The translations under genes and the position numbers were made by a program. From positions 48,779 through 68,778 of IMG/VR virus record IMGVR_UViG_3300001605_000032: 20,000 bases of DNA; one strand, 5' to 3'. Every line of letters begins with the position of its first letter. Position 1 is the stretch's first letter. The notes beneath the pieces are model-generated. The model saw only the letters and a list, made by a program, of their open reading frames with translations, was not told the DNA's origin and searched no databases. The stretch comes from an uncultured virus (IMG/VR IMGVR_UViG_3300001605_000032) (Duplodnaviria; Heunggongvirae; Uroviricota; Caudoviricetes). This document shows positions 2,867 through 19,962 of this stretch, piece after piece.

Positions 2867-3778
2867 TCAGGACGACGGGAACGAACCCCAAACCGCGCGC
2901 GGATCGTTGTTGAAGAATCCGCCGCGCTGGTACGCCTTGACGAGCAGGTTGTCGGTGATGTTGTCCACCCACATATCCGTCTCGTACGGAACGCGCTCGA
3001 TGTGGATAAACCCATCGATGGTGGTGTCGAGGAACCACGCGCGCGAGTTGGTGAGGTAGTCCCATGCGATGTACTGCGTGAGGCCGCCGGACAGCGACAG
3101 CACGGCGTTCACATCGTTGTTGGCCGTACCTGGGCGAAGCTCGGACTTGAGCAGGCGGATCGCCACCTTCTCAAGCTCCAGCGGCACGATCAGACGCTCG
3201 GCGCGGGCGTAGACCTTCAGGCCGGCCTCGTCCACGAAGTCTCTTCGAACAGCGGTCATGCCGTCGAGAAGCGAGCCCTCGTTAAGATCAAGATCGGTCG
3301 TCGGGCGATTGGCCCAAGTGCCACCATCGTAGGGATGGTCGGTGGCGCAGAGCGCCTTGCCGTCACCGCCAACGTTGGTGTCGTAGGTCGTGGCATTGTT
3401 GAAAATGCCAGCAGCCTCGCGCTCCCAGAACTGGTTGAACGACTTGCTGAGGCCAAGAGCGGTCGGCTTGAACTCGCTCTTGTAAAGGTTGTCGTCGATC
3501 GCCTTGCGGGTGATGGCGTAGCCAAGACCCACCTCGACCGGCTCCATATTGTAGACCCAGCGCTCGCCAGCGTTGTTGTCGAACTGCGTGGCGCCGCCTT
3601 CCGTCTTCAGTTCGGGAAGCGACATGTAGCGAGCCTGTACGCTGCGCTCGATCTGCATGTTGCTTTTACGCTTGCTGAAGATCTTCGAGTAGAAGTTCGG
3701 AAGATCCTTGTACTCTCCCGTGATCTCCATGAGACCGGGGAGCAGCAGGTCACGAATCTGACCAAGTGCAATAGCCAT
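2867..3778 (-). CDS. Major capsid protein (Mu gpT-like, HK97 fold), 303 aa
   Basis: Motifs LLLPGL, GLGYAITRKAIDDNLY, GGDGKALCATDHP, LIVPLELE and DPRAVWGS; strong AAGGAG RBS; position after scaffold and decoration genes. Confidence 0.9.
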   Translation of the reverse strand: MAIALGQIRDLLLPGLMEITGEYKDLPNFYSKIFSKRKSNMQIERSVQARYMSLPELKTEGGATQFDNNAGERWVYNMEPVEVGLGYAITRKAIDDNLYKSEFKPTALGLSKSFNQFWEREAAGIFNNATTYDTNVGGDGKALCATDHPYDGGTWANRPTTDLDLNEGSLLDGMTAVRRDFVDEAGLKVYARAERLIVPLELEKVAIRLLKSELRPGTANNDVNAVLSLSGGLTQYIAWDYLTNSRAWFLDTTIDGFIHIERVPYETDMWVDNITDNLLVKAYQRGGFFNNDPRAVWGSFPSS

Positions 3779-16189: not shown

Positions 16190-17062
16190 CTACAAATCAA
16201 TGCCGTAGTGAGCGACAAGCCGCTCCAACCCACACTTTATCATCGCCGCGCCGGCAGCAGACGCCTGCACGGGTGACTTGTAGCCAAGGCACGCACGGCC
16301 AGCGTCTTCCAGGGACGGCGTGCGCTCTACTGCCATGTAGTCCTCGCACACCAGCACCAGCATCCAGTGCAGGGTATCGCCGGGCATCGGCTTGCCGGTC
16401 ACGGGGCATTTGGCGATGCCGATGGCTTCGCACGCCTTCCACCAACGCTTGTGGGCGTCGTAGCGGCGATCCTCGGGGCCTGGCACCTCAAACTCGCGGC
16501 CGAACTTGTCGTAGTAGTAGCGCGGAGCCTGTTGAGATGCAGGCGTACCGCCGCCGCTGGTCAACTCACCATAGCGCGCAGTGACGCTAGGGCCACGATG
16601 GCCCATGACAAAATCGCGATAGAACTGGCGCGCGGCTTCCATGTAGGCTCCCGCGTAATCCTTGCCGATCTGGCCGCGCCGAACCATGGCCTCGACGATG
16701 GGCACGTGGCGCCATACGTCCGCCTTGGCATCTCGCCCCGCACCGACCGACACGTTGACGTGCTCGAACATGCCACGGGATGCCACACGCTCTGGCGTTG
16801 GGGCATTGGTGTCGGGAGCATCGGCGGTGCTGCCGTCGCCGTCCATCAGGCCAAGCGGATCGCCAGCACGACGGAGCTTCAGAGTTGCAGTGCGAACGCG
16901 CCGATCGGCGGCGTCGGCATCGTCCAGCAGATCGACAATCGCAGCACGTATGGCGGCTGCAATCTCGGGCTCCAGTTCCCCCGTAGGGGCAAGCCCAATC
17001 TCGTCGTCGCTTGCGCACAGGTGATCGTCCTGCGGCGCCAGCATGGCGTCCAGGGTGGTCAT
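16190..17062 (-). CDS. DUF6456-like (GafA/GafZ-related) putative late-gene activator/antiterminator (290 aa from ATG 17062)
   Basis: AGGA RBS before ATG 17062; motifs MVRRGQI...AARQFYRDF, VTARYG, LVLVCED and C-terminal GLERLVAHYG match my recollection of the alphaproteobacterial DUF6456 family; upstream of the packaging operon. Confidence 0.65.
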   Translation of the reverse strand: MTTLDAMLAPQDDHLCASDDEIGLAPTGELEPEIAAAIRAAIVDLLDDADAADRRVRTATLKLRRAGDPLGLMDGDGSTADAPDTNAPTPERVASRGMFEHVNVSVGAGRDAKADVWRHVPIVEAMVRRGQIGKDYAGAYMEAARQFYRDFVMGHRGPSVTARYGELTSGGGTPASQQAPRYYYDKFGREFEVPGPEDRRYDAHKRWWKACEAIGIAKCPVTGKPMPGDTLHWMLVLVCEDYMAVERTPSLEDAGRACLGYKSPVQASAAGAAMIKCGLERLVAHYGIDL

Positions 17063-17299
17063 GTCAGGTTTCCTGAGTTGTAAGGGCGGCGCCGCCCTAA
17101 GAGGGCTGCAAGTTGATGGTGTCGCCAAGTATCTGGCGAGCACACACGATGTACGCGCTGCACATCTTGTACTTGCTATTTGTACGACGTAGACTTGCTC
17201 TATCTCGCTCCAACTCGATGACTCTCGATTGTAATACTTAGTCCGACAGACGCAGCAATACACAATCATCACGGCGGTGAAATAGATAACGTNCCTCAT

Positions 17300-17566
17300 T
17301 TTACTTACGCCTTGCAGAGCGATGATCAGGCGGACGGCTGGATCGCTCAGAAGAAGTCCCCNANGTGCTACCAGACCCAATGCCAGCCATCTCACGAACT
17401 CCTTCAAGAGATCGATGTCCNGCTTCCATTGCTCCAAGTGCTCGATGCGGCGCCCGTGGTCCTTCGTACTGCCCACGACGCCGTTCGTGCCGTTGTAGCC
17501 CCACATCGCATCCTGAAGACGCGCCAAAAGCACGTCCTTCCAGGAATTGTCGGATTGCTCGCTCAT
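17300..17566 (-). CDS. Holin-like small membrane protein (3' end uncertain; frame stays open into the next gene)
   Basis: GAGGGG RBS; GxNGxxG...RIEHLE coiled coil followed by hydrophobic WLALGLVAxxGLLL; contains ambiguous bases. Confidence 0.5.
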
Positions 17567-17997: not shown

Positions 17998-18294
17998 CTA
18001 ATTCTCACCTCGCGCCGTCTTGATATACCCCTGAAGACTGCGTAGGCGCGCCGTCTCGCGGAAATATTGCTGGCGCAACTTCAAGTGCGCCAGCACCAGG
18101 TCATCCCCTGGCTTTACCTGGCCGGCCGGCTCAGGGGGTGTCATCAGTCTGGCACTAGGTGGTGCCGGGGGTGGCAAGCCAGTGGCACAACCTGCGAGTA
18201 GTGACACCACAGCCATGACAGGGGGTGTCATCCATTTACGGTTGAGAATGCAGCGGGGTGCCGTGTGGCGCGCGCTGCCGCATAGGGTGCACAT
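17998..18294 (-). CDS. o-spanin-like (Rz1-like) lipoprotein with an N-terminal CCHC zinc knuckle (98 aa)
   Basis: GGGAGG RBS; TGATG overlap with the i-spanin stop; lipobox LAGC followed by a Pro-rich segment; N-terminus CTLCGSARHTAPRC. Confidence 0.75.
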   Translation of the reverse strand: MCTLCGSARHTAPRCILNRKWMTPPVMAVVSLLAGCATGLPPPAPPSARLMTPPEPAGQVKPGDDLVLAHLKLRQQYFRETARLRSLQGYIKTARGEN

Positions 18295-18587
18295 CACTGC
18301 ACAATCCTCCCTAGTGCCCGTGCCATGGTGTCGGTGACGACGCACTTATCTGCCGAGCCAAGATCGGCCAGCGCCCGACGATAGCCCTCGTCGCGCAGCG
18401 TATCGGCCTCGACCGCCGCTTGATCATCGCGTTGGTTGTACGACTTGATGGCAGCGTTGGCCGCGATCAGTTCGCGCTCGATCTTTGCCATCCGGTGAGC
18501 ATTAACGCCGTTCCGGTCGCCCCATGCCACCAGATAGATGACCAGTGCAGCGGCAACTCCGAGCTTCAGATAGGTAAGCCACGTCAT
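18294..18587 (-). CDS. i-spanin-like (Rz-like) protein (97 aa)
   Basis: N-terminal TM helix, coiled coil and a C-terminal Cys; lies between the endolysin and the lipoprotein. Confidence 0.7.
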   Translation of the reverse strand: MTWLTYLKLGVAAALVIYLVAWGDRNGVNAHRMAKIERELIAANAAIKSYNQRDDQAAVEADTLRDEGYRRALADLGSADKCVVTDTMARALGRIVQ

Positions 18588-19597
18588 GTGCCGCCCCCCT
18601 TGCTGGCGGCGGGGAAATACCGGCCGCTCACCAGATCGACGATCACGCGGCGGATGATGAACCGGCCGCGCCAGACGAGATAGGCACCCATCGCTATCAG
18701 GAAGAGGCCGAAGTGCTGCTTCATGAACCCGCTGAACTGAGCGAGACCCGCCGTCACAGTGTTGAGCGCGGTGATCTGGCTTGAGACCTCCGCCAGCTTG
18801 TCGGCACCTTCTGCTACCGCCCCAACCGTAATCGCCGCGCCACCCACTGCCTGGATCTCGGCTCCGGCTTTGGCCTTAGACGATACCTGCGTGACCTCGG
18901 ATGTCGTGACCGTGGGCGTGTCTGCACCAGGGAACCTTGGCCAGATAGCCTTGGCCTTCGCCAGATACTTCTTGCGACTCTCCAGCCCGTTGTATCCGCC
19001 ATTGATTCGCTTGGTGATGGACTTGATGTCGTCGCGAGCGGCCAGTTCGTTGCAGTTCTTCTCGTCCCACTCCCTGAACGATCCTCGGAGCGCGGCGTAG
19101 GGCGAATGATCCCCCATCAGCAGCCGTTCGTGATCGCGCCGGCCGGTGATTTGCATCGGGCCAAAGCCGCGATACTTGTACCCATCGCCCGGCTCTAGGT
19201 TGCCAAGCTCGATCGCCTTTTTGGGATTGCCCTGACCGTAGACGCGCTCAAACAAAGCCTTGGCCCGCGCCTCGCCGCGCATGGAGCCGATGGCGTGGGC
19301 TTCCTCGATGGAGACCTTGGCCGAGTGCCGCCCGATCCCAAAAATCTCCATAATCCGCTTGGCCGAGTACGCGCCGCTCTCCCAAAGTATCGTAAACCCA
19401 CCGCTTTCATGAGCAACTTGAGCCATGAAGTGCTGTAGTTCCAGCGCCGTGTCGATTCCGAACTCCGCGCACAGTTCGCCGCCATGGTTTACCAGCGCAT
19501 CGGCATAGACATCCCATGTCGACGCCTTGTCGCCAGCGGCCGGACGGGGTGCCAGCGTATGCAGGTCATCGCGCTTCAGCATCGAAAGACCCCCCAT
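18584..19597 (-). CDS. Glycoside hydrolase family 19 endolysin with a C-terminal membrane segment (start may be ATG 19582)
   Basis: HFMAQVAHESGGF, GNLEPGDGYKYRGFGPMQITGR and ITKRINGGYNGLESR motifs; hydrophobic tail FGLFLIAMGAYLVW. Confidence 0.9.
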   Translation of the reverse strand: MGGLSMLKRDDLHTLAPRPAAGDKASTWDVYADALVNHGGELCAEFGIDTALELQHFMAQVAHESGGFTILWESGAYSAKRIMEIFGIGRHSAKVSIEEAHAIGSMRGEARAKALFERVYGQGNPKKAIELGNLEPGDGYKYRGFGPMQITGRRDHERLLMGDHSPYAALRGSFREWDEKNCNELAARDDIKSITKRINGGYNGLESRKKYLAKAKAIWPRFPGADTPTVTTSEVTQVSSKAKAGAEIQAVGGAAITVGAVAEGADKLAEVSSQITALNTVTAGLAQFSGFMKQHFGLFLIAMGAYLVWRGRFIIRRVIVDLVSGRYFPAASKGGGT

Positions 19598-19962
19598 TCG
19601 TTGAGTTGCGCCACTGCGGCATCGATCCCGGCTGCCACTGCCGCGTCAGCGCCAGCTCGCTTGAATGCGGCCAGCATCGCGGTCTGTTCCGCTGATGCCC
19701 GGCCCTTGATACGTTTCAGTTCCAAACCGAAGGTGCGCCCCTCGCAGATCAGCACCAGGTCAGGGATGCCGGCGACCATGCCCATCGACCTGAGCTTGGC
19801 GCCTTCGTTCTTGGTTCGCTTGCCTTCGTTCGGCGTGTGCCAATAGAGCAGTCCCGGTCTGCCGCGCAGTCGCAGATGATCCAACACGGCACGGTGCACC
19901 TGCGCCTCGGTCGCGTGTGGCGCGACGGGCGGTTTCTTTCGTCTCGGCATGGTGTCACCCAT
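19576..19962 (-). CDS. VRR-NUC (PD-(D/E)xK) nuclease, Holliday-junction-resolvase-like
   Basis: TEAQVH, HTPNEG, GMVAGIPDL, LELK and GRASAEQ motifs. Confidence 0.9.
   Translation of the reverse strand: MGDTMPRRKKPPVAPHATEAQVHRAVLDHLRLRGRPGLLYWHTPNEGKRTKNEGAKLRSMGMVAGIPDLVLICEGRTFGLELKRIKGRASAEQTAMLAAFKRAGADAAVAAGIDAAVAQLNEWGVFRC

Follow-up and report, generated by a model that had tools for sequence, protein, structure and literature searches.

A retroviral-type zinc-knuckle motif ahead of the export signal of a phage o-spanin-like lipoprotein

Why should a phage lysis lipoprotein begin with a motif of the retroviral nucleocapsid type, placed on the part of the protein that export is expected to remove? 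The question is raised by a 98-residue open reading frame (ORF) of an uncultured phage of the Caudoviricetes (IMG/VR record IMGVR_UViG_3300001605_000032). The stretch analysed here, called the window, comprises 20,000 nucleotides (positions 48,779 to 68,778) and is the terminal part of the 68,778-base (68.8-kb) record, for which CheckV gives a completeness of 94%. The natural host is probably an alphaproteobacterium. The minus strand of the window carries a tightly packed lysis cassette, consisting of an endolysin, an inner-membrane spanin-like (i-spanin-like) protein, an outer-membrane spanin-like (o-spanin-like) lipoprotein, which is the ORF in question, and a protein with four transmembrane (TM) helices. 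Spanins carry out the last step of Gram-negative phage lysis, and to our knowledge their signal sequences have so far been treated as plain targeting devices. The analysis shows that the knuckle-prefixed o-spanin is a real and conserved variant of a known lysis protein, and apparently an undescribed one.

The order of the elements can be read directly from the ORF. From the N-terminus there are M1, the motif C2-T-L-C5-G-S-A-R-H10-T-A-P-R-C15, the segment ILNRKW, the hydrophobic stretch MTPPVMAVVSLLAG, and C36 (coordinates are collected in Table 1). The ordinary signal that follows the knuckle thus has ILNRKW as its n-region and MTPPVMAVVSLLAG as its h-region. The residue following C36 is Ala and not Asp, which by the E. 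coli sorting rule is compatible with sorting to the outer membrane, and the mature part has no Cys other than C36, the predicted site of lipid modification. The lipobox fits the pattern [LVI][ASTVI][GAS]C given in the accessible text of the spanin survey (PMC6139136). An earlier reading of the same DNA, referred to below as the original prediction, had reported the exact C-X2-C-X4-H-X4-C spacing, ILNRKW, the lipobox, a GGGAGG ribosome-binding site and a TGATG coupling to the gene upstream, all of which are present.

By its architecture, that is the lipobox, the coupled i-spanin-like gene and the endolysin cassette, the product is best regarded as an o-spanin-like lipoprotein. This identity, also proposed originally, gains from a match to the Rz-like spanin family phrog_456. 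The relatives described below match phrog_1267 (E 3.9e-5 to 5.4e-3) and phrog_456, these spanin family matches being weak. No spanin family in Pfam or NCBIfam was matched by the window protein; one relative (P0012) matched Pfam LysC at E 0.021, below the cut-off, and for the eight proteins tried NCBIfam returned no family, apart from one spurious sub-threshold match. AlphaFold2, run on the alignment of knuckle-bearing sequences (A2, below), gave a mean pLDDT of 81 for residues 1-10, 75 for residues 11-20, 55-59 for the signal peptide and 83-94 for the mature part, where it predicts a long helix at residues 66-94. A search of ESM Atlas with residues 1-40 gave no usable feature match, the structural matches being TM-helix look-alikes only.

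It could be argued that the CCHC residues are never translated, the real start being at M22 or M27, or that they are an open-frame artefact of GC-rich DNA. Two in-frame ATG codons do precede the h-region in the window, and the frame is open upstream to 18345. However, the pairing energy with a generic anti-Shine-Dalgarno sequence is -11.7 kcal/mol for the upstream start against +0.6 for M22 and -3.1 for M27, so that neither downstream Met has a Shine-Dalgarno (SD) sequence, and with M22 as the start the n-region would have no K or R at all. Further evidence comes from two other loci. In L027 the Met of the knuckle lies within an ATGA overlap with the i-spanin stop, and in L071 it lies 8 nt past the TGA stop, behind GAGG. 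Between knuckle and lipobox, L071 has no ATG, GTG or TTG in frame, and the o-spanin of this locus can therefore be made only with its knuckle. The codons of the ligand residues vary synonymously among the window, L027 and L071 (TGC/TGT, CAC/CAT), from which it follows that the constraint acts on the protein. Chance is also a poor explanation: the CCHC pattern has one match in the six frames of the window and one in the whole 68,778-base genome, and when the window was shuffled 300 times by mononucleotide the average was 0.037 per 20 kb. The idea of an untranslated motif is thus largely refuted, and we give it next to no weight; the upstream start of the original prediction stands.

The exact start codon may be one codon further upstream. 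ATG 18294 has its A in common with the TGA (18294..18296) of the i-spanin gene, and immediately 5' of it there is an in-frame GTG (18295..18297), which forms a GTGA overlap. Because this GTG is better spaced (8 nt) from GGAGG than ATG18294 is, GTG18297 may be the true start, in which case the protein would be longer by one residue and begin M-M-C. Two relatives (P0002 and P0003) do begin MMC, and the knuckle is included with either start. Two further open frames touch this region, a 51-aa antisense ORF (18182..18337, +) that spans the knuckle, and the upstream continuation of the o-spanin frame itself (17998..18345, -) to a GTG at 18345. Both look like by-products of the 60% G+C content, and neither has homolog support. 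A programmed frameshift from the i-spanin gene into the knuckle, using this open frame, was considered and rejected, as the zinc motif would end up in the periplasm.

The knuckle is conserved among relatives. A word-indexed search gave eight relatives with 57-96% identity, six of which have the exact motif; P0005 has Arg for His and P0007 is without the extension. An exhaustive profile search then gave 133 proteins, nearly all of them short lipoproteins, which together with the earlier matches and the window protein make a set of 137 short sequences. Four long proteins were set aside from these family counts, three of which (P0024, P0047 and P0074) are multi-knuckle proteins matched only via the knuckle positions of the profile. 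Within the set, 22 sequences have a knuckle within 2-8 residues of Met1 and 101 have a plain lipoprotein signal. A simple rule finds the lipobox in 123 of the 137, the other 14 including several that apparently lack their N-terminus and some with variant lipoboxes. The knuckle-bearing o-spanins come from about 20 related uncultured phages. The alignment of 23 knuckle-bearing sequences (A2) includes some with no more than 28-35% identity to the window protein. Its invariant columns are C2, C5, A12, C15, the lipobox C36, L50, L87 and Q88, and T3 and H10 are kept in at least 90% (H10 in 22 of 23); C36 is invariant in alignment A1 as well. The knuckle, together with the lipidated Cys, is thus the best conserved part of the protein. 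The original prediction would have been in difficulty had the CCHC residues not been conserved among homologs, but they are.

A tblastn search for cultured-phage relatives in 50,697 phage records gave none for the o-spanins of the window and L071, and for P0013 it gave one weak match, to an Rz-like spanin of Salmonella phage SPLA5a (E 0.05). All ten relatives that were looked up are proteins without a name or a 'hypothetical protein', one of them from a metagenome-assembled genome of Xanthobacteraceae. A scan of metagenomes found only a knuckle-less relative (L003) and a truncated one (L004), and a scan of genome contigs found one doubtful locus (L001, 31 residues matched), which was not used. 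L071 was the one locus found with a second DNA pattern, designed on the MxCT[YF]C subfamily.

As to the kind of motif, the A2 profile was compared with all sequences in the PDB. There were 32 matches at E<=1, and 31 of these are CCHC knuckle proteins, namely retroviral nucleocapsids (NC), AIR2, TUT4/7, Lin28 and CLIP-170. The best matches have marginal E values (Rous sarcoma virus NC, 2ihx, 0.0012; Moloney murine leukaemia virus NCp10, 1a6b, 0.0033). All of the matches align to profile positions 2-22, which include the Pro and the basic residues past the last Cys. By spacing and by profile likeness, the motif is thus of the retroviral CCHC type and a putative zinc site.

The family also shows how the knuckle is attached. 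The signal peptide has a median length of 16 aa in the 101 plain members as against 37.5 aa in the knuckle forms. What follows the knuckle in these forms, 22 in number, has a median length of 20 aa, with about 2.5 K/R and an h-region as hydrophobic as that of the plain members. This stretch is an ordinary lipoprotein signal by itself, so that the knuckle is an optional addition in front of a signal peptide that is already complete. The original placement of the CCHC motif in the cytoplasmic n-region, before the lipobox, is supported. The same gene order without a knuckle is found in L002 (IMG/VR) and L003 (metagenome), where the o-spanin starts MKYA.. at an ATGA overlap with the i-spanin stop; spanin export therefore does not need the knuckle. 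We note that RR follows the knuckle in about half of the relatives. Export by the twin-arginine translocation (Tat) pathway was rejected as unsupported, since RR alone is not the full consensus and the rest of the Tat consensus is absent. Basic residues past the last Cys are also typical of CCHC knuckles, as seen in the PDB matches.

These observations bear on one of the two functions originally suggested, a check on spanin export. The knuckle on the precursor, either through its folding or through a cytoplasmic binding partner, would delay or meter Sec targeting, lipidation, cleavage or turnover, and so tune the timing and amount of spanin that reaches the outer membrane. The idea has some attraction, because the knuckle is physically in the precursor and always on the cytoplasmic side, no more than 18-23 residues separate it from the lipobox Cys in 18 of the 22 sequences that have it, and it recurs in two clusters of the o-spanin tree (below) and possibly in a third, unrelated o-spanin (L005). 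The extended signal peptide region (ESPR) of autotransporters, a conserved N-terminal extension that modulates translocation, would be a parallel. Set against this are the close relatives that have the same cassette and no knuckle, and the segment after the knuckle, which is already a normal signal peptide. The spacing is also loose: it is 15-26 residues in most knuckle forms, but 39 in P0015, 56 in P0008 and about 95 in L005. There are, in addition, stand-alone knuckle genes in lysis cassettes (below), and by established Sec biology the n-region does not pass through the membrane, so a folded domain there is no obstacle to export. We consider an export gate doubtful, though it deserves to be kept in mind.

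A tree was calculated from the mature parts only (123 rows and 66 columns, with the 14 lipobox-less rows and the four long proteins omitted). The tree is poorly resolved, and the profile used to collect its sequences included the knuckle, which favours distant sequences that bear one. It has the knuckle in two separate clusters, in 16 of 23 rows and in 6 of 7 rows. Parsimony gives 6 gains or losses of the knuckle, at least 2 of which are forced by well-supported branches, and none of 500 label shuffles was as low as 6 changes. Such patchiness could mean that the knuckle is no more than a generic end-cap or a relic of shuffling, a self-folding module spread by recombination that has no specific ligand on the o-spanin and at most stabilises the cytoplasmic N-terminus, for example against proteolysis. 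That many unrelated proteins have the module at one end or the other, and that it turns up in many genome regions, for instance close to genes for terminase, primase, NinB and excisionase, would fit this. However, the ligand residues are invariant while the mature parts have diverged to about 30% identity, and a relic would decay, whereas a ligand has been lost in only one of 23 sequences. An end-cap or relic is for these reasons improbable.

Taken as a whole, the anatomy very probably works as follows. Translation would start at GTG18297 or ATG18294, coupled to the stop of the i-spanin gene, and the knuckle would fold in the cytoplasm around a single zinc ion. The basic stretch and the h-region would then insert N-in via Sec, Lgt would lipidate C36, signal peptidase II would cut before C36, and the mature 63-residue lipoprotein would go to the outer membrane. 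Since the lipobox is invariant, the knuckle should remain, after the cut by signal peptidase II, at the inner face of the inner membrane as part of the 35-residue signal peptide, to be freed later by signal-peptide peptidases. The n-region of an inserting signal peptide faces the cytoplasm, the lipobox Cys is where Lgt and signal peptidase II act, and a zinc site requires the reducing cytoplasm. For these three reasons the knuckle would not belong to the mature periplasmic spanin, and its action would have to be either on the precursor or within the signal peptide after cleavage.

An alternative topology is that of an uncleaved signal anchor, in which the knuckle would be the cytoplasmic domain of a protein retained in the inner membrane, and no outer-membrane lipoprotein would be formed. 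Many bacterial membrane proteins have a zinc finger ahead of a single TM helix, the DUF7220 carriers described below are exactly of the knuckle-then-TM kind, and W21..L40 could be long enough to span the bilayer. Yet the lipobox Cys is invariant, the 101 knuckle-less relatives have textbook short lipoprotein signals, and the i-spanin gene already supplies an inner-membrane partner. We regard a signal anchor as very unlikely.

Other phage loci carry the knuckle as well. A degenerate DNA pattern representing C-[AT]-[LF]-C-X4-H-T-A-X2-C matched 57 stretches in IMG/VR. These were grouped by eye, 46 loci falling into 14 credible groups and 11 loci remaining doubtful, a knuckle being counted as credible when it also shows consensus residues that the pattern does not specify (Gly, Gly and Pro/Asn-Trp). 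The carriers are listed in Table 1. They show that the retroviral-type CCHC knuckle is a portable end-module of many unrelated phage proteins, a point missing from the original prediction. Among them are the DUF7220/phrog_4276 proteins, annotated as 'putative Znf domain-containing protein' in Pseudomonas phages PaMx25, NP1, JG012 and others; such a protein matches 141 phage records, 23 of which cover at least 80% of the query. A putative ORF in L032 (1884-2471, -) has tandem knuckles, CTFCGAGTHTAALC and CTYCGARDHDVKAC, and overlaps, in a different frame, the gene of a 734-aa virion structural protein (phrog_3287).

Lysis cassettes hold five of the 14 credible groups, which by eye is more often than we would expect. 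Besides the o-spanin of L027, the knuckle occurs in L005 in frame with an embedded o-spanin of an unrelated lineage. The endolysin there belongs to phrog_7 (E 1.7e-34) and the i-spanin to phrog_312 (E 3.7e-12). This frame stays open, and a ribosome starting at the knuckle would therefore make a knuckle-o-spanin fusion. The ORF begins within the last 37 nt of the endolysin gene and crosses the 5' part of the i-spanin gene, and its lipobox is LSGC. L055 has a stand-alone gene for a 70-aa knuckle protein, followed downstream by a holin (phrog_1356), an i-spanin (phrog_312, E 5.1e-22) and an embedded o-spanin (phrog_11621, E 3.5e-19). This knuckle gene overlaps the start of the holin gene (3083-3310) in a different frame, and its product has no tblastn match in the cultured-phage records. 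In L058 the gene pair that was read as spanins has no PHROG match at 1e-5. Among the lysis genes of unrelated phages, two o-spanin lineages thus have the knuckle fused to them and a third has it in frame, and elsewhere it is a gene of its own that is coupled to an endolysin.

Table 1. Positions of the lysis-cassette genes and knuckle features in the window, and knuckle carriers at other phage loci (locus coordinates refer to the locus named).
Feature	Position	Strand	Basis or remark
VRR-NUC nuclease gene	19576..19962	-	PF08774 E 1.4e-4; phrog_824 E 3.6e-28
Endolysin, 337 aa, GH19-like catalytic part, C-terminal hydrophobic helix and basic tail	18584..19597	-	phrog_181 E 7e-47
i-spanin-like gene, 97 aa, N-terminal TM helix then helical periplasmic part	18294..18587	-	stop overlaps o-spanin start
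Shine-Dalgarno-like GGGAGG for GTG18297/ATG18294	18306..18311	-	-11.7 kcal/mol, generic anti-SD
o-spanin-like lipoprotein ORF, 98 aa	17998..18294	-	phrog_456 Rz-like spanin E 0.0061
Predicted lipoprotein signal peptide, residues 1-35	18190..18294	-	Met, 14-aa knuckle and complete ordinary signal
CCHC zinc-knuckle motif, C2..C15, exact C-X2-C-X4-H-X4-C	18250..18291	-	direct reading
Lipobox L33-A34-G35-C36; C36 predicted lipidated first mature residue	18187..18198	-	fits [LVI][ASTVI][GAS]C
Mature o-spanin-like part C36..N98 and stop TAG (17998..18000)	17998..18189	-	phrog_456, homolog matches
138-aa protein, four hydrophobic helices	17579..17995	-	begins 2 nt past o-spanin stop
Knuckle o-spanin in a lysis cassette	L027		
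167-codon knuckle ORF from the endolysin/i-spanin junction, in frame with embedded unrelated o-spanin	L005 2986-3489	+	group of 8 near-identical loci
Stand-alone 70-aa knuckle gene	L055 2995-3207	+	ATG in ATGA overlap with endolysin stop
Knuckle downstream of holin and endolysin	L029, at contig end		holin phrog_4237; endolysin phrog_7
24-aa knuckle-only ORF	L058		between endolysin and gene pair read as spanins
Proteins of about 150-410 aa with N-terminal knuckle	10 loci		partly phrog_3956
Proteins of 131-133 aa with C-terminal knuckle	6 loci		phrog_21134/34012
Knuckle loci between terminase genes	10 loci		
2-TM DUF7220/phrog_4276 proteins, knuckle just before first helix	3 loci (L041 2989-3276, L013, L039)	+ (L041)	

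What, then, might the knuckle do? We tentatively favour, at slightly less than an even chance, that it is a separate functional unit, a portable binding module for cytoplasmic nucleic acid or protein, which would be an accessory of the lysis cassette and would not be required for export. In such a scheme each o-spanin made would bring one knuckle with it, which would be delivered within the signal peptide, held at the inner face of the membrane by the h-region, and parted from the spanin by cleavage, so that it would stand outside the periplasmic spanin machine. This is close to the second product that the original prediction had offered beside an export check, and it appears to fit the data better. 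It is preferred to the export check because knuckle-less relatives have the same cassette, because the spacer varies (from about 5 to about 95 residues between knuckle and signal peptide), and because stand-alone knuckle genes occur in other lysis cassettes. It is favoured further by the presence of the module on unrelated proteins. A nucleic-acid ligand is suggested by the profile likeness to nucleocapsid knuckles.

A number of findings weigh against this functional proposal or against the identification of the motif on which it builds. The window protein has no match to PF00098 at E<=0.1, and its sole Pfam knuckle match is to PF21759 (AIR2-like ZnK4) at E 0.075, with 13.5 bits against a threshold of 27. 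Its relatives and the other carriers score 16.3-19.5 bits on PF00098, where the cut-off is 20.8; among the five relatives scanned, P0013 reaches 19.5 bits and P0066 17.7 bits. The motif is accordingly called knuckle-like and is not filed as a member of PF00098, being below the Pfam gathering threshold. Retroviral knuckles use aromatic residues to stack on bases. These are not conserved here: the window protein has no aromatic after the first Cys or the His, having T3/L4 and T11 at those places, and only some relatives have Y, F or W there. A nucleic-acid ligand is made less likely by their absence. One relative, P0005, has the Arg mentioned above instead of the predicted zinc-ligand His. The share of distant o-spanins that bear a knuckle is inflated, since the search profile included the knuckle. 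The L005 fusion is an open frame across an overlap, found only in contigs that are 91-100% identical. Finally, nine of the 14 carrier groups, as grouped by eye, lie outside lysis cassettes, adjoining replication, recombination, excision or packaging genes, so that the module is not specific to lysis.

It remains to describe the rest of the cassette. The endolysin and i-spanin genes join in ATGA, the i-spanin and o-spanin ORFs in TGATG, and a gap of 2 nt precedes the four-helix gene. The match of the i-spanin-like gene to phrog_8821, an Rz-like spanin family, is weak (E 0.078). A gene of this kind is at the matching position in L002, L003 and L027, and L071 also has an i-/o-spanin pair. No family in Pfam, PHROGs or NCBIfam is matched by the four-helix protein. 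Homologs of its gene come after the o-spanin gene in L002 and L003, and by position alone it is a possible holin. When the window endolysin was compared by tblastn with those of cultured phages, the aligned stretch was aa 4-226 only. The endolysins of the window and of L002 (2704-3675), L003 (2550-3521), L027 (1519-2658) and L071 (2875-3888, -) all end in a hydrophobic helix and a basic tail, with a common ..[DE]..GR[YW].P motif in the tail, and their catalytic parts come from different families (GH19-like phrog_181, phrog_315, or no family). The C-terminal helix and tail look like a portable membrane anchor. Single N bases at window positions 17293, 17362, 17364 and 17421 lie within a minus-strand ORF (16190..17566), in which the codons concerned are translated as X.

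Of the systems to which the protein can be compared, the nearest is the two-component o-spanin of the lambda Rz1 type, as presented in the accessible text of the spanin survey (PMC6139136). The window protein resembles it in being a small lipoprotein with a lipobox, coupled behind an i-spanin gene in an endolysin cassette, with the 'separated' architecture. It differs in that its signal peptide, as in the other knuckle forms, has about 35-38 aa against the usual 16 or so, the reason for the extra length being the N-terminal CCHC knuckle. In the text of that survey that could be searched, the words 'zinc', 'knuckle' and 'cytoplasmic' have 0 occurrences. More widely, titles and the opening lines of abstracts, in a search directed at papers readable without subscription, revealed no published zinc motif on a spanin or lipoprotein signal peptide. 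The remark in the original prediction that this was not known as a characterised spanin feature agrees with the literature covered in this way, which contains no description of it.

With the retroviral NC knuckles (zf-CCHC, PF00098; 2ihx, 1a6b, 1a1t) the phage motif shares the exact spacing, the Gly after the second Cys and the basic tail, and in most relatives also the Gly before the His and the Pro after the last Cys (profile E 0.0012-0.03). Unlike these, the phage knuckle is below the Pfam threshold, has unconserved stacking aromatics, and is a single copy placed before a lipoprotein export signal. The DUF7220/phrog_4276 Znf proteins of PaMx25, NP1 and JG012 have the same N-terminal knuckle consensus, cytoplasmic and directly before membrane helices. 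They are different in having two TM helices and in lying next to denV; they are not lipoproteins, are not in a lysis cassette, and their segment is not a cleavable signal.

Some bacterial and phage systems set precedents for parts of the scheme. Enterococcal sex pheromones are cut from lipoprotein signal peptides and are a precedent for a second product; the autotransporter ESPR shows that a bacterial signal peptide can have a conserved extension at its N-terminus; and the cytoplasmic antiholin RIII of T4 is a precedent for a small cytoplasmic lysis regulator. None of these is known to have a zinc knuckle or homology to the window protein.

Animal viruses offer the closest likeness in working principle. 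According to the parts of PMC3280523 available to us, the stable signal peptide (SSP) of the arenavirus GPC fusion complex works after its cleavage and takes part in zinc coordination on the cytoplasmic side, so that here too a viral signal peptide of a membrane-fusion machine is tied to zinc. The likeness is one of principle only. The SSP has 58 aa, is myristoylated, spans the membrane twice, contributes one Cys to a site shared with the subunit G2, and is retained in the complex, whereas the phage knuckle has four self-contained ligands, its mature partner leaves for the other membrane, and there is no homology. Long two-domain signal peptides are also described by the 'NtraC' model (PMC2447879, accessible text), which likewise has a functional N-terminal domain and a C-terminal targeting part. 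That model concerns vertebrate precursors of at least 40 residues with no zinc motif, and the window protein would be a phage lipoprotein example. In this light the signal peptide might itself be a gene product, a phage counterpart of the functional signal peptides of animal viruses, one 98-codon gene then yielding an outer-membrane fusion subunit and an inner-membrane-tethered knuckle. This is a speculative idea that we think unlikely.

For the annotation of phage genomes, there is a practical consequence. Gene callers and curators that expect a short lipoprotein signal would trim starts of this kind and so lose the knuckle. The portable knuckle also provides a handle on an uncharacterised family of phage 'Znf' proteins. 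For phage biology, and on the speculative idea just given, the recurrence of the knuckle across lysis cassettes would hint that Gram-negative phage lysis has a cytoplasmic component not yet recognised, perhaps one that regulates its timing or the expression of lysis genes. A conserved zinc module on the signal peptide of an o-spanin would mean either an unforeseen cytoplasmic handling of the precursor or two products in two compartments, and either outcome would be new both for phage lysis and for bacterial lipoprotein signal peptides.

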